Origin: Escherichia coli
GTDB taxonomy: Bacteria; Pseudomonadota; Gammaproteobacteria; Enterobacterales; Enterobacteriaceae
NCBI RefSeq assembly: GCF_048403405.1
Contig: NZ_CP183135.1
Direction: 5' to 3' (one strand)
DNA length: 64,000 nucleotides
A program made the translations under genes and the position numbers. This document shows positions 5,080 to 52,851 of this stretch, one piece after another. Every line of letters begins with the position of its first letter. The first letter of the stretch is position 1. The notes under the pieces are model-generated. The model was not told the DNA's origin. It was given only the letters and a program-made list of their open reading frames with translations, and did no database searches.

Positions 5080-5365
5080 ATATTGCTGTACGCAATAACG
5101 CGTTTTATTTCTGCCTGCCGATAATGAATAATATCACTGTCGGCAGGGGGATTTATTCCTCTGTTACCGCGCCTGCCTTGCCGTTAATTCCATGAGAAAA
5201 ACAGGGAGATAACGTCCCTTTTATCAACGCATAATGTGTGTGTTCATCACGATTTGATGAAATAAGTTTACATAACTTGTCGTCTGCTGACATTTTTATG
5301 ATCCAGGTCATGTATAACGCGACAAAAAGATATGATAATAATTATCATTTGTATTCTTTGGCGGT

Positions 5366-7312
5366 GTGCACGTGCGTAACTTCCGTAACTCTTTGTTGGT
5401 TACTCTCTTTGGCTTGTTTATAAGCATGAGTGTCTGGGCGTCGACGAATTATGCGCCTTTGATTGAAGATATCGAGCAACGTCTTGATAAAACAGCGGAA
5501 CTTTATCAGCAACAGCATGCCGACGAGGCGCGCCGCACGGTACAAATGGCCTATTTTGAGGTGTTCGAGAACCTGGAAGGGCCGATCCGCATCAACATTT
5601 CCGCGCGCAAAAGTTACGAGATGGAGAGCGCATTCGGCGAGATCCGTCGAATGATTGGCGAGAAAAAACCGCTCGCTGACGTCCAGGCGCGCATTGACTG
5701 GCTGAAAGCCGCACTGCGCGAAGTGGAACCGGTGCTGGATGGCGGACATCGTCTGGTGGCCGAAGAGCAGCACAACGCGCTGTCCAGGGACGACATTGCC
5801 GTTCACTGGCAGGAGAGTTTCAGGACGATCGACGATCTGCTGGCGCAGGCGGTCACTGAATATCAGGCCGGGAATTACAGCGTTGCCAGTCAGCACGTTC
5901 AACAGGCGCACTATCAGGGCTTTAAAAACTCTGAGATGGAGATGTCCCTCAGACAAAACCGTTCTGCAAAAGATGCCGCCTCCATTAACCAACAATTCTC
6001 ATCCCTGATTGCGCTGACCGCGCAACCTGACCATCTCAACGATGTCTCCTATCAGGTCACTACGCTGCTACAGGATATCGAGGATATCTTACCCGGCTTG
6101 CCAACCACCCGTGACGATCAGCAGGTTGCCGCAGCGCAAAGCGCAGACAACATTCCGGCGGCGGACGAGGGAAATAACCGCACCGACTGGGCTGAGGTGA
6201 CGACGGGAATTAACCAGAGCATTCAGGACGCGATAGCGCGCTATCAGGGCGGCGATGCGAAGAATGCGATTCTGGATATCCAGGATACCTACTTCGACCG
6301 CTTCGAAGCCAGCGGCATGGAAAACAAAATCGGCTCTCGCGATTCGGCATTTAAAACCACGCTGGAGGCGTATTTTACCCGCCTGGTCAGTCTGATGAAG
6401 GCCGGTCAGCCGGTTGAGCGCCTGAATGCAGAGGCCAGCGCGCTGACGCAGGATCTGCAAAAAGCCGTGACGATGCTGGGCGAAGGCGAAGAAACCCAGT
6501 GGAGTCTGCTGCTCTATAGTCTGATGATCATCGTGCGCGAGGGGCTGGAAGCGCTGCTGATTGTTGCGGCAATCGTGGCCTACATGGTGAAAAACAACCA
6601 TCAGGATAAGCTGCCGCTTATTCGTCAGTCGGTAATTGTGGCGCTGATCGCCAGCGTCATCACCGCCGCTATCTTCCAGATGCTGTTTACTAACTCCGGC
6701 GCCAGCCGTGAACTGCTGGAAGGCATAACGATGCTGATTGCCGTCGTGATGCTGTTCTTTATGAGTTACTGGCTGCTGTCCAAAGTGGAAGCGCGCCACT
6801 GGAAAGCCTGGCTGGAAGGCAAACTGTCTCATTCCCTGTCGCGAGGCTCCCTGGTCGGACTATGGCTGACCAGCTTCCTGGCGGTGTACCGCGAAGGGGC
6901 GGAAACGGTGCTGTTCTATTACGCTCTGATTGGCGATGCAAACACGGTATCCGGCCATATGGCGATTGGCGCCGGTTTTGTGATTGGCTGCGTGGTGCTG
7001 CTGCTCGCCTGGCTGGTGATGCGTTACTCAGTGGTGCGCCTGCCGCTGAAACCCTTCTTTATGTTTACCGGCAGTTTCATGTATCTGATGGCCTTCGTCT
7101 TTGCGGGCAAAGGCGTTCTGGAACTGGTGGAAGGCAAACTGTTCCAGCCTACGTTGATTAACGGCTTCCCTGAAATCAGCTGGCTGGGGATTTATCCCTA
7201 CGTGGAAACGTTGTTACCGCAGGTCGTATTGCTGCTCGCGGCGCTGGTGGCGCTGTGGGTGATGCGGCGCAAAAGCGCGGTTCCCGGGGAGACGATAAAA
7301 AATAACCCATAA
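5366..7312 (+). CDS. FTR1-family iron permease with large N-terminal periplasmic domain (FetM-like)
   Basis: 648 aa; signal peptide, ~370-aa soluble domain, then multi-TM FTR1-type region (...REGLEALLIVAAIVAYM...). Confidence 0.7.
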   Translation: MHVRNFRNSLLVTLFGLFISMSVWASTNYAPLIEDIEQRLDKTAELYQQQHADEARRTVQMAYFEVFENLEGPIRINISARKSYEMESAFGEIRRMIGEKKPLADVQARIDWLKAALREVEPVLDGGHRLVAEEQHNALSRDDIAVHWQESFRTIDDLLAQAVTEYQAGNYSVASQHVQQAHYQGFKNSEMEMSLRQNRSAKDAASINQQFSSLIALTAQPDHLNDVSYQVTTLLQDIEDILPGLPTTRDDQQVAAAQSADNIPAADEGNNRTDWAEVTTGINQSIQDAIARYQGGDAKNAILDIQDTYFDRFEASGMENKIGSRDSAFKTTLEAYFTRLVSLMKAGQPVERLNAEASALTQDLQKAVTMLGEGEETQWSLLLYSLMIIVREGLEALLIVAAIVAYMVKNNHQDKLPLIRQSVIVALIASVITAAIFQMLFTNSGASRELLEGITMLIAVVMLFFMSYWLLSKVEARHWKAWLEGKLSHSLSRGSLVGLWLTSFLAVYREGAETVLFYYALIGDANTVSGHMAIGAGFVIGCVVLLLAWLVMRYSVVRLPLKPFFMFTGSFMYLMAFVFAGKGVLELVEGKLFQPTLINGFPEISWLGIYPYVETLLPQVVLLLAALVALWVMRRKSAVPGETIKNNP

Positions 7313-40561: not shown

Positions 40562-41415
40562 TGGCATTATTACTGGAGCCACTGCAGTTCACCTTTATGA
40601 GTCACGCACTGCTGATTTCACTGGTAGTTTCCATACCCTGTGCGCTGCTGTCGGTCTTTCTGGTCCTGAAAAGTTGGGCACTGATGGGTGACGCGATGAG
40701 TCATGCGGTTTTTCCTGGCATCGTGCTTGCCTGGATTCTGGGGTTACCTCTGGCTACAGGGGCATTCGTCGCCGGAGTATTCTGTGCGGTGGCGACGGGA
40801 TACCTGAAAGACAACAGCCGAATCAAGCAAGATACAGTGATGGGGATTGTTTTTTCTGGCATGTTTGCCGCAGGTCTGATCTTGTATATTGCAGTCAAAC
40901 CAGACGTACATCTTGATCATATTCTTTTCGGCGACATGCTCGGGATAACCATCGGCGATATAATCCAGACGGTGATTATTGCCGGACTGGTTACACTTGT
41001 TATTAGCGTAAAATGGCGGGATTTTTTGCTGTTCAGCTTTGATTATCAACAGGCGCAGGCAAGCGGTTTGCATACGAGATGGCTGCATTATGGGCTGCTG
41101 TGCATGGTCTCCCTGACCATTGTGGCGACGCTGAAAGCGGTTGGTATCATTCTCTCTATTTCTCTTCTCATTGCGCCTGGTGCCATTGCGGTACTCCTGA
41201 CACAACGCTTTCATATTGCGCTCCTGCTGGCGACTGGCATATCGATATTGGTCTCAATGACTGGTGTCTGGCTGTCCTTTTTTATCGACAGCGCGCCAGC
41301 TCCGACAATTGTTGTCTTATTCGCGGTCATGTTCATCATGACGTTTACCGTTACCAGCATCAACGCACGCACAAAGGAAAATGCCGAACCACGGGATTTG
41401 TTATCATCCGATTAG
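40558..41415 (+). CDS. sitD: Mn/Fe ABC transporter permease SitD
   Basis: 285-aa multi-TM permease paralogous to SitC. Confidence 0.85.
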   Translation: MMALLLEPLQFTFMSHALLISLVVSIPCALLSVFLVLKSWALMGDAMSHAVFPGIVLAWILGLPLATGAFVAGVFCAVATGYLKDNSRIKQDTVMGIVFSGMFAAGLILYIAVKPDVHLDHILFGDMLGITIGDIIQTVIIAGLVTLVISVKWRDFLLFSFDYQQAQASGLHTRWLHYGLLCMVSLTIVATLKAVGIILSISLLIAPGAIAVLLTQRFHIALLLATGISILVSMTGVWLSFFIDSAPAPTIVVLFAVMFIMTFTVTSINARTKENAEPRDLLSSD

Positions 41416-41882
41416 CAGAACACTCGGCCAGCAACATCCGCTTATTGGCGATGCGCTTGAACGAATAATGCACAGACTTATGATTCTGATAAGTTTTGTT
41501 GCCAGAGAGTTGCTGCGGACTGGATAGCAAGTAATGTCGATTCTCAGGGGTAGCAAACAGCGCAGTAAAATGAGGGAAGTAGTGGCAAAACATAGAGAAA
41601 ATTGGGGGGCGAGGGCCAGTGATGTAAAAAACCACGCTAAGAGTTTAATTAATTGTTTGTATTGAAGTTTAATGATCTTAACTCACCCTTAAGAATATCT
41701 TCCGGTAACGAAGACGTATAATGCCCCAGCATATTTATATGGCTATGTATCAGCAGCGATAATCTTGCCGGATGCTACTCCTCAGGAGTTTCTCCCGATT
41801 TGCGAAGATGTGACAACGCCTCCTGCATGTAAAGTGTGTTTCACAGCACAACCGCATTGGTCACCAGCCCCAGAGCACCTAG

Positions 41883-42317
41883 TTGATCTTCCTGCCCTTA
41901 ACGGTAGCTGAAGATGACTGGGCTGGATGGAAAATCCTGCATGGTGCATTGGGAGAGCAGATAGAATTGGTTGGCGACGATCTGTTTGTGACCAACGTAA
42001 AGTATATTCAGCGCGGCATTGACGAAAACCTTGCCAATTCAGCATTGATTAAACTCAACCAGATTGGTTCCCTGAGTGAAACCTTTGATGCGGTACAACT
42101 TTGCCATGACAACAACTGGGGCACCTTTATCTCACACCGCAGTGGTGAGACAGTGGACAGCTTTATCGCCGATATGACAGTTGCAATGCGCGCAGGTCAT
42201 CTCAAAACGGGAGCTCCATGCCGGGGTGAGCGTATTGAAAAATATAACCAGCTTATGAGAATTGAGGATGAACTGGGTTCATCGGCGCAATTTGCCGGAA
42301 AGTCTGCCTTTAAATGA
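41883..42317 (+). pseudogene. eno: enolase C-terminal fragment
   Basis: ...[29 protein letters not shown]...[29 protein letters not shown]...[13 protein letters not shown] is the C-terminal third of enolase. Confidence 0.7.
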
Positions 42318-42657
42318 CATTATTGTGCCAATCCCCCAGGCTTACACGTCGGGGTTATTCTGGAGGAATGATGAAAGCTCACGTTTTTGTTATTTCTATG
42401 CTTACTGGCATTGTCGTCACCTATGCCGTGTTACTTCTTGGTTGCTTGTTCATCGATAAAACGCTCCCCACTGTAGATGTTGTCATTCTGTCACTTGTCG
42501 TGGGGGCTTCTGCTCAGCAATTGTCGAGGGTATTAATGTCAATAAATAGAACCTTCCCTTATCTTGCATGTAGTCAAAGGATATAAATTAACAATATCAG
42601 TCAAATGAGAACATATTCTGATATTGTTACGATAAAAAATTATTTTATGAGGGGTAC

Positions 42658-43038
42658 ATGATTAAATCACTTTTTGCCGTCATTATCGGCGGTTCTGTTG
42701 GATGTACTCTGCGCTGGTTACTGTCCACACGCTTTAACAGTCTTTTTCCAAATCTACCTCCAGGTACACTGGTGGTGAACCTCCTTGCCGGGTTAATTAT
42801 TGGTACTGCGTTGGCGTACTTTTTACGACAACCACACCTTGATCCTTTTTGGAAATTAATGATAACAACGGGACTTTGTGGAGGTCTGAGTACTTTCTCT
42901 ACATTTTCTGTTGAAGTATTCGCATTACTCCAGGCGGGAAATTATATATGGGCTTTGACGTCTGTACTTGTTCACGTCATTGGCTCCCTCATCATGACAG
43001 CTTTAGGCTTTTTTATCATAACCATACTTTTCGCATGA
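42658..43038 (+). CDS. crcB: fluoride ion channel CrcB
   Basis: 126 aa, four TM segments, MIKSLFAVIIGGSVGCTLRW...GGLSTFSTFS. Confidence 0.85.
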   Translation: MIKSLFAVIIGGSVGCTLRWLLSTRFNSLFPNLPPGTLVVNLLAGLIIGTALAYFLRQPHLDPFWKLMITTGLCGGLSTFSTFSVEVFALLQAGNYIWALTSVLVHVIGSLIMTALGFFIITILFA

Positions 43039-43100
43039 GAATTCATTAACGTTACAGGTTTATCAACTAATGTGACGCTTAGGATAGAATTTCGCTCCAT

Positions 43101-43161
43101 GGTATGCGTTTGCAGTCATTACAGTCTCCATGACGACTGTAATGACTGCAAACGCATTACC
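43101..43161. repeat. long near-perfect hairpin (26-bp arms, 8-nt loop) downstream of crcB
   Basis: GGTATGCGTTTGCAGTCATTACAGTC / tccatgac / GACTGTAATGACTGCAAACGCATTACC. Confidence 0.5.
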
Positions 43162-43417
43162 TGACATATCAGTATAAACAATGAATTAACCTCTTGGCGT
43201 ATTTTTTACATCACTGGCCCTCACCCCCCAAAATTCTCTCTGAAAAATTGTTGCGGTTAACGTTGCCAATGTATCCACCCATTTCAGAAGACGATCTGGC
43301 ATCCTGGTGGCATGCTGCGATGTGCTTCAGGTGAGTGCACTGGGCGGTCAGCACAGGCGGTTTCGACAGCGAAATTGCACAGGACGTTATGCCGGCTGTG
43401 AGTACAACATCATAGCC

Positions 43418-44611
43418 TTACTTGATTGTACGGTAATGCCAAATACATGCAGACACTATGGTAAATAATACAGCGGCAAATAATGCCGTCACAATCAGCG
43501 CGATTGAGACACCTGTTTTCGACGCCAGTGGCACCAACAATGCGCACAGCCCATAGCCAAGTGTGTGACTGGCCGCAAGCCAGCCCGCGCCTGCGCCGTC
43601 GGCCAGCTTATCATTCAGTAAAAGTTGATAAGCGGGTGTTGCCAGAGCGGCCCCAAATGACAGCACTGCACAGCCCAGGTAAAACAACCATAGCTGTTCA
43701 GTGAGCATGATAGCCAGACCACTACTCATCAACACCCCGGCACTCAGGAGCAGAGCCACTGGAGTCAGGCGCTGTGGACGGAGTACCACGAACTGCGCGA
43801 TAAGCGCAGCTATTGCGGACAGCCCCAACAACCACGCCACCTGTTGGCTAATAGTGGTGGTATCAGTATCGAACTGGCGAGTAAGGGCTGGCGAAAGTCC
43901 AAGCTGCATCATGCTCATTGCCGCAGCCAGTAACATTGCGCAAAGCAGATAAGGCAGGCAATCCCGCTTCAGGCTGACGCTCTTGCGCTCCGGTGTGGGC
44001 TGTGGTGGTGTGCCGGGCAACCGCAGAAGCATCACCACAGCCCACACCGGAGCTGCCATCAGCATCCACACTGGCGCCAGAGGGTGAATGACCAACATTG
44101 CCGCCGCGCACAGCGGCCCGAATAGCCTGCCGCAGCTCAGGCCGGAGCTGATGGTTGCCAGAGCGGCCATGCGATTCCCTTCTCCCGCTCTCTGCAATGC
44201 CCAGACCTGACAGGCTGGCACCATTGCTGACACGGTCAGACCGTAGACGATCCGGGCGATGATTAATATTCCCAACCCCACCGCTGTTGTTACGGCACCG
44301 GTAGCCATCAGCACGCTTCCCAGCCCAAGCAGGGTAAAGCTTACGCCATATCCTCCCAGAGCCCACAGCACCACAGTCTTACTGCCAGTAAGGGAAATTT
44401 GCTTTCCCCACCATGGGGAAGATGGCAGAAACAGCATTGAGCCCAGCATCAGCAGGGCAGCCCATACAGACAGACTCAGATTTGTCTGTATGACCAGAAC
44501 AGGGAGTACAACCAGCAGACCGTTCTGTCCGATACCGAGAAGACCGGCACTGAACGCCAGTGGCCAGCAGGACAGGGTTTTTTGGGGCGTATCTTCGATC
44601 TTAGATGACAT
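43418..44611 (-). CDS. shiF: MFS transporter ShiF (aerobactin-locus associated)
   Basis: 397-aa 12-TM protein divergent from and immediately upstream of iucA. Confidence 0.7.
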   Translation of the reverse strand: MSSKIEDTPQKTLSCWPLAFSAGLLGIGQNGLLVVLPVLVIQTNLSLSVWAALLMLGSMLFLPSSPWWGKQISLTGSKTVVLWALGGYGVSFTLLGLGSVLMATGAVTTAVGLGILIIARIVYGLTVSAMVPACQVWALQRAGEGNRMAALATISSGLSCGRLFGPLCAAAMLVIHPLAPVWMLMAAPVWAVVMLLRLPGTPPQPTPERKSVSLKRDCLPYLLCAMLLAAAMSMMQLGLSPALTRQFDTDTTTISQQVAWLLGLSAIAALIAQFVVLRPQRLTPVALLLSAGVLMSSGLAIMLTEQLWLFYLGCAVLSFGAALATPAYQLLLNDKLADGAGAGWLAASHTLGYGLCALLVPLASKTGVSIALIVTALFAAVLFTIVSACIWHYRTIK

Positions 44612-44746
44612 TGTAATGTTTCAACACCATGTATTAATTGTGTTTATTTGTAAAATTAATTTTTCTGACAATAACATTTCTCGTTGATAATGAGAATCAT
44701 TATTGACATAATTGTTATTATTTTACTGTGTAGGAGCTGTTTGATT

Positions 44747-46471
44747 ATGATCCTGCCCTCTGAAAAATCCGCCACAGATGTGGCTGCGCAGTGCTTCCTG
44801 AATGCCTTGATTCGTGAAACCAAAGACTGGCAACTGGCGGAATACCCGCCAGACGAATTGATTATCCCGCTGGACGAACAGAAGTCGCTCCATTTCAGAG
44901 TGGCTTATTTCTCCCCAACCCAGCATCACCGCTTTGCATTTCCTGCTCATCTGGTCACGGCATCAGGCAGTTATCCTGTCGACTTTACCACTCTCTCCCG
45001 GCTTATTATTGATAAGCTCCGGCATCAACTTTTTCTGCCAGTTCCCCTCTGCGAAACTTTCCACCAACGCGTGCTGGAAAGCTACGCCCATACGCAACAG
45101 ACAATTGATGCCCGCCATGACTGGGCCATCCTGCGTGAAAAAGCGTTGAATTTTGGCGAGGCTGAGCAGGCACTGCTGACAGGACACGCTTTCCACCCTG
45201 CACCTAAGTCTCATGAACCGTTTAACCGCCAGGAAGCTGAACGATACCTGCCTGACATGGCACCTCACTTCCCGCTGCGGTGGTTTTCGGTGGATAAAAC
45301 GCAAATCGCTGGTGAAAGTCTGCATCTTAACCTTCAACAGCGGTTGACGCGATTTGCCGCAGAAAATGCGCCCCAGTTACTCAACGAATTAAGTGACAAT
45401 CAATGGCTGTTCCCGCTGCACCCGTGGCAGGGAGAATATCTTTTGCAGCAAGTGTGGTGCCAGGCACTTTTTGCTAAAGGACTTATCAGAGACTTAGGCG
45501 AGGCCGGCACGTCGTGGCTGCCGACCACCTCTTCCCGCTCCCTCTACTGTGCTACCAGCCGCGATATGATCAAGTTCTCCCTGAGCGTTCGGCTGACCAA
45601 CTCCGTCCGTACTCTGTCTGTGAAAGAGGTGGAGCGAGGAATGCGCCTGGCACGTCTGGCGCAAACCGACGGCTGGCAGATGCTACAGGCCCGCTTCCCT
45701 ACTTTCCGGGTAATGCAGGAGGACGGCTGGGCCGGGCTGCGCGATCTTAACGGCAACATCATGCAGGAAAGTTTGTTTTCCCTGCGTGAAAACCTGCTGC
45801 TGGAGCAGCCGCAAAGCCAGACCAACGTTCTGGTTTCCCTGACTCAGGCCGCACCGGATGGCGGTGATTCGCTGCTGGTTTCGGCGGTAAAACGCCTGAG
45901 CGATCGCCTCGGTATCACTGTGCAACAGGCCGCCCACGCATGGGTCGATGCTTACTGTCAGCAGGTGCTGAAGCCTCTGTTTACGGCTGAAGCGGATTAC
46001 GGCCTGGTGCTGCTGGCGCATCAGCAAAATATTCTTGTGCAGATGCTTGGGGATCTGCCGGTCGGATTTATTTACCGTGACTGCCAGGGCAGCGCGTTTA
46101 TGCCTCACGCGACAGAGTGGCTCGATACCATTGACGAGGCGCAGGCGGAAAATATTTTCACCCGTGAGCAGTTGCTGCGCTATTTCCCTTATTACCTGCT
46201 GGTTAACTCCACTTTTGCCGTAACTGCTGCGCTGGGTGCTGCCGGGCTGGACAGCGAAGCGAATCTGATGGCTCGTGTACGAACATTGCTGGCTGAAGTG
46301 CGTGACCAGGTGACTCATAAAACCTGTCTCAACTATGTTCTGGAAAGTCCGTACTGGAACGTAAAAGGTAACTTTTTCTGTTATCTGAACGATCATAACG
46401 AGAACACCATCGTTGACCCTTCGGTGATCTATTTTGATTTCGCTAACCCGCTGCAGGCTCAGGAGGTCTGA
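44747..46471 (+). CDS. iucA: aerobactin synthetase IucA
   Basis: 574 aa from ATG 44747 (MILPSEKSATDVAAQCFLNAL...), IucA/IucC family. Confidence 0.85.
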   Translation: MILPSEKSATDVAAQCFLNALIRETKDWQLAEYPPDELIIPLDEQKSLHFRVAYFSPTQHHRFAFPAHLVTASGSYPVDFTTLSRLIIDKLRHQLFLPVPLCETFHQRVLESYAHTQQTIDARHDWAILREKALNFGEAEQALLTGHAFHPAPKSHEPFNRQEAERYLPDMAPHFPLRWFSVDKTQIAGESLHLNLQQRLTRFAAENAPQLLNELSDNQWLFPLHPWQGEYLLQQVWCQALFAKGLIRDLGEAGTSWLPTTSSRSLYCATSRDMIKFSLSVRLTNSVRTLSVKEVERGMRLARLAQTDGWQMLQARFPTFRVMQEDGWAGLRDLNGNIMQESLFSLRENLLLEQPQSQTNVLVSLTQAAPDGGDSLLVSAVKRLSDRLGITVQQAAHAWVDAYCQQVLKPLFTAEADYGLVLLAHQQNILVQMLGDLPVGFIYRDCQGSAFMPHATEWLDTIDEAQAENIFTREQLLRYFPYYLLVNSTFAVTAALGAAGLDSEANLMARVRTLLAEVRDQVTHKTCLNYVLESPYWNVKGNFFCYLNDHNENTIVDPSVIYFDFANPLQAQEV

Positions 46472-52790: not shown

Positions 52791-52851
52791 ACACGACATA
52801 ATCTGTAGTCAGGGAGGATAGACTCTTTACTGACTACAGATTATGTCGTGT
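52791..52851. repeat. perfect 22-bp inverted repeat with 17-nt spacer just downstream of iutA; core resembles RepFIB iterons
   Basis: ACACGACATAATCTGTAGTCAG ... CTGACTACAGATTATGTCGTGT; core CTGTAGTCAG also occurs in the iterons at 33950-34000. Confidence 0.5.

Follow-up and report, generated by a model that had tools for sequence, protein, structure and literature searches.

The question raised by this locus is why a near-perfect hairpin with a stem of up to 27 bp stands between two convergent genes, crcB and shiF, of a very common virulence-plasmid module. We analyzed it within a 64-kb window, i.e., the whole stretch of DNA under study; "the hairpin" below denotes the feature at 43101–43161. 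Our answer is that the hairpin most probably arose in a one-off, quasipalindrome-correcting template switch at the right end of a defective Tn3-family transposon, and that it is a by-product of mutation whose effects on RNA would be incidental.

The hairpin inside the right end of a defective transposon

The region matches about 800 IncF (ColV-type) plasmids at an identity of at least 99%; most were found in E. coli, and a few in Klebsiella, Salmonella, and Shigella. Here, sitABCD is followed by truncated eno, a small ORF, crcB, and the hairpin, after which come convergent shiF and iucABCD-iutA. The features are as follows.

41598–41603, plus strand: AAAATT at the tip of the left inverted repeat (sequence)
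41604–41641, plus strand: left terminal inverted repeat, GGGGGGCGAGGGCCAGTGATGTAAAAAACCACGCTAAG (sequence comparison)
41642–41900, minus strand: 3' remnant of a Tn3-family tnpA pseudogene (aligned by eye with the 3' end of tnpA in locus L013)
41901–41906, no strand: junction of a 4.25-kb internal deletion (comparison with the undeleted element in pEC244_2)
41907–42317, plus strand: truncated enolase gene, C-terminal part (Pfam Enolase_C, E = 8e-59)
42314–42586, plus strand: small ORF (no Pfam family; a 59–71-aa ORF is called at the matching position in relatives)
42658–43038, plus strand: crcB, fluoride exporter, the last gene of the passenger operon (Pfam CRCB, E = 9e-27; annotation)
43101–43161, no strand: near-perfect hairpin (palindrome), with left arm 43101–43126, loop 43127–43134, right arm 43135–43161, and a bulged A at 43158
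43162–43189, minus strand: subterminal stretch of the transposon right end, from the hairpin to the inverted repeat (sequence comparison)
43190–43229, minus strand: right terminal inverted repeat of a Tn3-family element, GGGGGGTGAGGGCCAGTGATGTAAAAAATACGCCAAGAGG (sequence comparison)
43230–43235, plus strand: AAAATT at the tip of the right inverted repeat (sequence)
43418–44611, minus strand: shiF (MFS transporter), convergent with crcB (Pfam, annotation)

The letters of 43101–43161 are GGTA-TGCGTTTGCAGTCATTACAGTC / TCCATGAC / GACTGTAATGACTGCAAACGCATTACC, i.e., a left arm GGTATGCGTTTGCAGTCATTACAGTC, a loop TCCATGAC, and a right arm GACTGTAATGACTGCAAACGCATTACC. Repeat finding returned arms of 23 nt at 43104–43126 and 43135–43157, 100% complementary at a spacing of 8 nt; beyond the bulged A (43158), three to four further pairs carry the stem to 43101/43161, with 26/27 positions paired. 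The predicted RNA minimum free energy (MFE) of 43085–43175 is −44.5 kcal/mol for the plus strand and −45.7 kcal/mol for the minus strand. The corresponding z-score is −9.2 on both strands, and none of 200 shuffled sequences folded equally well (shuffle mean, ca. −17 to −19). The G+C content of the stem is 46%. A second match to the arm sequence was absent from the 64-kb window, where the chance expectation is 0. An earlier note on this DNA had described a hairpin with 26/27-bp arms and an 8-nt loop between crcB and the right-hand inverted repeat, and both the structure and the location (43101–43161 versus 43190–43229) were confirmed. It had also called the hairpin exceptionally long. This is to be qualified, since the same 64 kb contains two other hairpins of 22–24 bp with 96–100% complementarity (43987–44053 and 52791–52851).

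The two inverted repeats, of 38–40 bp, have the GGGG...TAAG form of Tn3-family ends and enclose the unit made of the eno fragment, the small ORF, crcB, and the hairpin. The features by which terminal repeats of this family are recognized were found at 41604–41641 and 43190–43229, namely, a GGGG start, a TAAG end, and AAAATT flanks; the AAAATT on either side is possibly a target-site duplication. The hairpin was also considered as the Tn3 terminal repeat itself and rejected, since it lies ~30 bp inside the right inverted repeat. From ~43166 onwards, the right-end stretch is conserved across many Tn3-family ends, and encodes the TnpA C-terminus where such an end is tnpA-proximal. At the other end of the unit, 41642–41900 is 100% identical to positions 5340–5598 of the pEC244_2 locus (L045), which run on into DDE_Tnp_Tn3 fragments (E = 3e-23 and 6e-82).

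When full-length eno and crcB were used together as a query, 17 plasmid records covered most of it. Of these, pEC244_2 was examined; it carries an undeleted 5.9-kb element (L045 5302–11168) consisting of the left inverted repeat, a frameshifted tnpA (DDE_Tnp_Tn3, E = 6e-82), part of tnpR, a fluoride riboswitch (RF01734; score, 43.8 bits; threshold, 34), ppaC-usp-eno-orf-crcB, an identical, perfect hairpin, and the right inverted repeat. On the two sides of the 4.25-kb deletion, the window and this element share 100% and 99.9% identity. The deletion takes out the remaining tnpA, tnpR, the riboswitch, two genes (ppaC and usp), and eno except for its 3' third. Because of the deletion, the window element is left without the riboswitch and the promoter, and, judging from what has been lost, native-type fluoride regulation of crcB cannot operate in this copy. 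A riboswitch-ppaC-usp-eno-orf-crcB operon is present in Rahnella variigena too, with a CrcB that is 90% identical, and is the closest operon found. The "crcB cassette" of ColV plasmids is the stump of a Tn3-family transposon that imported a fluoride-riboswitch operon resembling the Rahnella locus, most copies, the window's included, being without the riboswitch.

The hairpin is located in the 3' untranslated region of crcB, between the 3' ends of crcB and shiF. As read from these comparisons, the transposon is a dead member of the Tn3 family, its passenger operon has the hairpin in its 3' UTR, and no other feature lies between the hairpin and the right-end sequences proper. One suggestion of the earlier note, that the hairpin is part of a cassette end, is upheld by its position just inside the right repeat at 43190–43229, with the matching left repeat at 41604–41641. 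The 1.6-kb unit resembles other inverted repeat-bounded Tn3-family derivatives in its 38–40-bp GGGG...TAAG-type repeats, its passengers, and the lack of a working transposase. The hairpin itself is neither a terminal repeat nor needed by related active elements. MICs and TIMEs are inverted repeat-bounded deletion derivatives of Tn3-family transposons; the unit described here differs from them in being an internal deletion of a 5.9-kb defective transposon rather than a purpose-built miniature element.

Several minor observations concern the same neighborhood. The position of the small ORF between eno and crcB (42314–42586 in the window; 4712–4891 in L007–L011) is kept from Rahnella to the ColV plasmids, at a length of 59–90 aa, and no Pfam family matched the window copy. 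In two plasmids, an IS1 is inserted upstream of crcB, outside the hairpin. Between the right inverted repeat and the shiF stop codon, 43275–43395 contains scraps of an IS21-like element (ISEc12 istA) and of IS2/IS3-family transposase genes. A promoter-like site on the plus strand within the right inverted repeat (43205–43234; TTTACA, 18 nt, CAAAAT) reads outward, antisense to shiF; it is a match to consensus only.

A graded series of right ends and the change in the left arm

The full perfect hairpin was found only in the sit-crcB-shiF module, in ~775 plasmid records that are all at least 95% identical over 83 nt and include 11 single-mismatch variants. Homology to other elements begins in the loop: positions 43128–43232, from the loop to the tip of the right inverted repeat, share 84% identity with the corresponding end of intact Tn3-family transposons whose genes are tnpA, tnpR, and a SIR2 / DUF87 (HerA-like) pair. 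Further right ends were collected by pattern scans of genome, viral, and metagenome collections, the metagenome pattern being written to leave out the window's own variant, while type B (below) came from a look-up of close CrcB homologues.

The right ends sort into five types (E, C, C'/D, B, and A). In type E, the left arm is wholly absent. Types C and C'/D have the 11-bp outer stem alone, GGTGTTGCGTT / AACGCAGTACC, including two G-U pairs. Type B, represented by three contigs (L019–L021), has intact eno and crcB genes (CrcB 98% identical) and the same right end; its hairpin combines the outer stem with an inner CAGTC/GACTG pairing around a non-complementary core. Type A is the window, with its perfect stem. 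RNA folding energies were −10.7 kcal/mol for E, −16.0 for C, −18.0 for C'/D, −22.1 for B, and −44.5 for the window. Types C and E were each found with at least five different flanking sequences and must therefore have transposed repeatedly without the long stem. The hairpin is thus not an essential cis element of the right end in this Tn3 subgroup, given that E has no left arm and C only the outer stem. A lack of conservation of the palindrome in related sequences, which the earlier note had set against its own proposals, is essentially what we found: relatives carry an imperfect version or none.

Among the metagenome contigs, L030 (type E) and L026–L028 (type C) have an identical flank, GAACCGAATTAAAAAATAGG..., which suggests an exchange of passengers or ends among related Tn3-family transposons at one insertion site.

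The difference between the window and type B is concentrated in the left arm, at the following positions.

43100–43101, no strand: site at which 21 nt have been lost, adjoining the left arm on its 5' side (comparison with L019–L021)
43113–43122, plus strand: derived 10-nt left-arm tract, GCAGTCATTA (10/10 positions differ from L019–L021)
43139–43148, plus strand: putative template in the right arm, TAATGACTGC (common to relatives)

Over 1321 aligned nt, the window and type B are 92.8% identical, i.e., they diverge by 7.2%. The left arm reads GGTATGCGTTT-GCAGTCATTA-CAGTC in the window and GGTATGCGTTT-CATTGGCACT-CAGTC in type B, so that all ten positions of 43113–43122 are changed relative to the L019–L021 counterpart, CATTGGCACT, between flanks that are the same. 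The window tract GCAGTCATTA is the exact reverse complement of TAATGACTGC in the opposite arm (43139–43148). At the equivalent of 43113–43122, the outgroups C, C', and D read C(A/G)TTGTCCCT; the pattern C(A/G)TTG..CTCAG is common to C, C', D, and L019 and absent from the window. Read from the alignment, L019 matches outgroups C'/D at 7 of the 10 tract positions, and the window at none. Because the outgroup core matches type B and not the window, the imperfect state is ancestral; this polarity rests on one close sister lineage (L019–L021, three samples with ERR1098 accession numbers that may share one project) and on more distant outgroups at ~84% identity. The series of states and its direction are shown by these data, as are the anatomy and context of the hairpin.

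Ten independent adjacent substitutions, all restoring pairing, are not credible at 7% divergence (estimate, 0.07^10 x (1/3)^10). An alternative gapped alignment, with a 5-nt insertion and a 6-to-1 replacement, fits the difference between the window and type B as well, but would still demand a complex event that happened to yield perfect complementarity. We also considered insertion of the left arm as a 31-bp segment flanked by CTCCATG repeats. This candidate was dropped, since CTCCAT is already present at both places in L019, and replacement of the arm core is preferred.

The 21 nt missing from the window, TTGACCTCAAACCCGTCTACT, are present in L019–L021; the TCTACTTGG part is also found in the SIR2/HerA transposon, and type C shares the segment partly. 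At ~2040–2062 of L019, 5' of the left arm, the type B sequence CATTGACCTCAAACCC resembles the tip of a Tn3-family repeat, CATTGGCCCTCAAACCCC, and may be the relic of a nested transposon end that was deleted in the window lineage.

We infer from this pattern that the mechanism was a template switch. In a subgroup of Tn3-family transposons, the right end has an inverted repeat just inside the terminal repeat that is weak and pairs imperfectly: an outer stem, GGT..TGCGTT / AACGCA..TACC, encloses a core that is not complementary. A single switch during replication would then have occurred in the lineage that carried the fluoride operon (ppaC-usp-eno-orf-crcB) and was inserted between sitD and shiF in ColV-type plasmids. 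In the proposed course of events, synthesis proceeds leftwards through the left arm, and the 3' end of the new strand, GACTG, folds back onto the CAGTC that it has just produced in the other arm; 10–22 nt are then copied from the opposite arm, on the strand itself or across the fork, and the strand returns within TGCGTTT, before the bulged A, which would have survived for this reason. Ten non-complementary bases of the left arm would thereby have been replaced, taking the folding energy from about −22 to −44.5 kcal/mol and giving a near-perfect 27-bp stem. The 21-nt deletion 5' of the arm would have arisen in the same lineage, and the palindrome would have been passed on unchanged with the module thereafter. 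What marks a template switch is present at this locus: differences that are clustered (10/10 in the tract against 7.2% overall), a tract that is an exact reverse complement, and an ancestral state that is imperfect according to the outgroups and one close sister lineage.

Events of this kind are known. In E. coli experiments, template switching makes imperfect repeats "perfect or more perfect", and quasipalindrome template switches are stimulated by AZT or fluoroquinolones (PMC7202029). Template switching has further been put forward as the reason why perfect repeats are conserved to excess in Proteobacteria (PMC5941160) and as a way in which RNA stems can be created in one step (PMC8794818). 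As in the E. coli thyA/lacZ reporters (Ripley model; PMC7202029), clustered changes perfect an imperfect inverted repeat, are the exact complement of the other arm, and leave the flanks untouched. Unlike the reporter mutations, the hairpin represents a naturally fixed event recognized by comparison, its converted tract (10 nt minimum, 22 nt maximum) and 27-bp stem are long, and a 21-nt deletion adjoins it. The switches described by comparative genomics (PMC8794818, PMC5941160) likewise involve one event that turns a partial stem into a perfect one and a multinucleotide difference between close relatives. They concern rRNA genes or short chromosomal inverted repeats, whereas the hairpin is found on a virulence plasmid, where a transposon ends and within the 3' UTR of its passenger operon, and shows no sign of being a functional RNA.

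A literature search for the hairpin or for the Tn3-bounded crcB cassette returned no earlier description (weak evidence of absence), and this example, with its ancestral state kept in relatives, appears to be undescribed in the literature searched. It would be an unusually clean natural example of a template switch, in that one step created a stem of 27 bp and relatives still show the "before" state, and an eye-catching structure in a very common virulence-plasmid module would be explained without a new element.

Alternative readings of the hairpin

Like an intrinsic or bidirectional terminator, the hairpin is a stable stem-loop in the gap between convergent 3' ends. Unlike an intrinsic terminator, it has no U- or A-tract, a stem that is two to three times longer, and a G+C content of only 46%. 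A T-run follows it on neither strand (next 12 nt, CTGACATATCAG on the plus strand and ATGGAGCGAAAT on the minus strand), and a consensus terminator scan did not call it. The statement in the earlier note that the hairpin is no canonical intrinsic terminator, having no T-tract, agrees with the tails, the base composition, and the scan. By analogy with known terminators, it should be a weak one at most. The native crcB terminator was considered as a source of the structure and rejected: homology to Rahnella variigena ends ~30 nt after the crcB stop codon, where a different small hairpin follows.

By position, the hairpin must be transcribed at the end of the crcB mRNA. It would form a stem-loop in the crcB 3' UTR, and an antisense equivalent in transcripts reading through from shiF. 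A promoter scan located a promoter-like site directly upstream of crcB (42588–42617); with the native promoter deleted, read-through from sit is a possible source of crcB transcription. An RNA duplex of 23–27 bp would be expected to halt 3' exonucleases, as the hairpin probably does. RNase III acts on double-stranded RNA that extends for roughly two helical turns (20 bp or more) with hardly an interruption; with 23 uninterrupted pairs, the hairpin has the length of a candidate substrate.

A small-RNA element, a further suggestion made earlier, is unlikely. A scan of 41000–45000 against Rfam 15 at a permissive E-value gave only sub-threshold generic hairpin hits, namely, MIR7723 (28 bits against a threshold of 200) and mir-277 (22 against 43). 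Sub-threshold miRNA-like hits of this sort are typical of any long hairpin. A promoter-like site feeding the hairpin was not found in the promoter and terminator scan, and the perfect stem is not conserved outside one near-clonal module.

The hairpin could still be a selected RNA element, with the template switch accounting for its origin only: a stem-loop that forms or stabilizes 3' ends, an RNase III site, or a two-way insulator between crcB (or sit read-through) and the Fur-regulated shiF. We consider this unlikely. In its favor, the hairpin stands exactly between the convergent 3' ends, in a gap with no other terminator-like site; folding is very stable for either strand; four lineages with different passengers keep a weaker outer stem at this position; and qRT-PCR on plasmid pS88 detected transcripts of crcB, the small ORF, and the eno fragment, with a weak response to iron (PMC3438092). 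Against these points, there is no U-tract or A-tract on either side, type E transposons are without the left arm entirely, and the perfect form is limited to one near-clonal module. The ColV module is nearly invariant, and the conservation of the stem therefore carries no information on selection. The present findings indicate no selected role.

The 11-bp outer stem, kept in four lineages (with two G-U pairs in C, C', and D), leaves room for some function of the ancestral structure. In a combined scenario, which we regard as distinctly unlikely, the weak stem would be a conserved part of the backbone in this Tn3 subgroup, keeping passenger read-through away from the end of the transposon, and the perfected ColV form would have acquired a new use as an RNase III site or as an RNA barrier that works in both directions. 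If so, the barrier would uncouple sit-crcB read-through from the convergent, iron-regulated shiF-aerobactin region.

The polarity of change could also be reversed, with the perfect hairpin being ancestral and the imperfect or missing versions in relatives being decayed copies. Palindromes are prone to deletion, type C resembles the window arm with small deletions under one alignment, and plasmid CP121674 has a 38-bp deletion in the hairpin between CATTAC repeats. Yet B, C, C', and D have a common core (C(A/G)TTG...CTCAG), although their passengers differ and they have diverged by ~16%, while the window matches at 0/10 positions, and independent decay would not converge on one non-complementary sequence; this reading is very improbable. 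The deletion in CP121674.1 (L004) corresponds to window positions 43118–43155 and lies between direct CATTAC repeats. With homopolymer error(s) and fragmented iuc genes in the same record, the deletion may reflect faulty assembly of long reads and not palindrome instability.

An even slighter chance attaches to the palindrome being a protein-binding site, whether an operator bound by a dimeric regulator or a site at the transposon end that assists transposase, resolvase, or a host factor. A symmetric 23–27-bp repeat beside a transposon end would suit such a site, and the right arm and outer stem belong to a transposon backbone common to several elements. However, tnpA and tnpR of the element are pseudogenes, no second copy of the arm was found in the 64-kb window or elsewhere searched, and relatives that lack the left arm, or have a weak stem, occupy many different insertion sites, which makes the protein recognition site proposed earlier unlikely. 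The best Fur-box match in the hairpin had 9/19 mismatches, in a weak test in which the positive-control region also scored poorly.

That the hairpin belongs to some small element that is mobile or dispersed in its own right (such as a REP/BIME-like repeat, a MITE, an attC site, or an end of the IS200/IS605 or IS91 type) can practically be dismissed, since, although hairpins of such size occur in those systems, a degenerate arm pattern gave one match in representative genomes of 100,044 species, in the SIR2/HerA transposon, plus one viral-contig match and 19 metagenome matches (window variant excluded), all at Tn3-family right ends, and neither RYYYAAC/GTTRRRY core sites flanking the hairpin nor a nearby gene for a Y1/HUH transposase or an integrase was found. 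A dispersed palindromic repeat (REP/BIME, ERIC, or MITE) was rejected after searches of the window, plasmids, E. coli genomes, and genome, viral, and metagenome contigs, in which plasmid copies of the full hairpin occurred only in the one module. REP/BIME sequences form families of hundreds of dispersed copies and stabilize upstream mRNA; the hairpin resembles them as an extragenic palindrome that follows a gene and could guard its transcript against 3' exonucleases, and is unlike them single-copy. An integron attC site, which is marked by RYYYAAC and GTTRRRY core sites where an imperfect stem with extrahelical bases begins and has a cassette array or intI beside it, was rejected as well, as core sites are absent from 43090–43170 and neither an integrase nor a cassette array is present in the neighborhood.

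A second palindrome in shiF and other hairpins of the window

Another palindrome, at 43987–44053, lies 0.9 kb from the hairpin within the minus-strand shiF coding sequence. Its arms (43987–44010 and 44030–44053) are 24 nt long, paired at 23/24 positions, and separated by a 19-nt loop. In shiF homologues from E. fergusonii and K. variicola, which are 84–86% identical, 14/24 and 16/24 positions are paired. Six window-specific changes fall within 14 nt (44038, 44039, 44043, 44044, 44048, and 44051), and each raises complementarity; together, they turn the peptide AAPLLALVMLL into AAPVWAVVMLL, a change of ~4 residues. This palindrome looks like the outcome of a second template-switch event in the same module, and because it shows the same pattern, we count it in support of a template switch at the crcB-shiF hairpin. 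The two structures are possible test cases for methods that detect template switches in bacterial plasmids, and they caution that long perfect hairpins need not be functional elements.

Two further long hairpins of the window, at 33949–34013 (29-nt arms, 83% complementary) and 52791–52851 (22-nt arms, 100% complementary, 17-nt loop), have a CTGTAGTCAG/CTGACTACAG core in common and may be copies of a single element.
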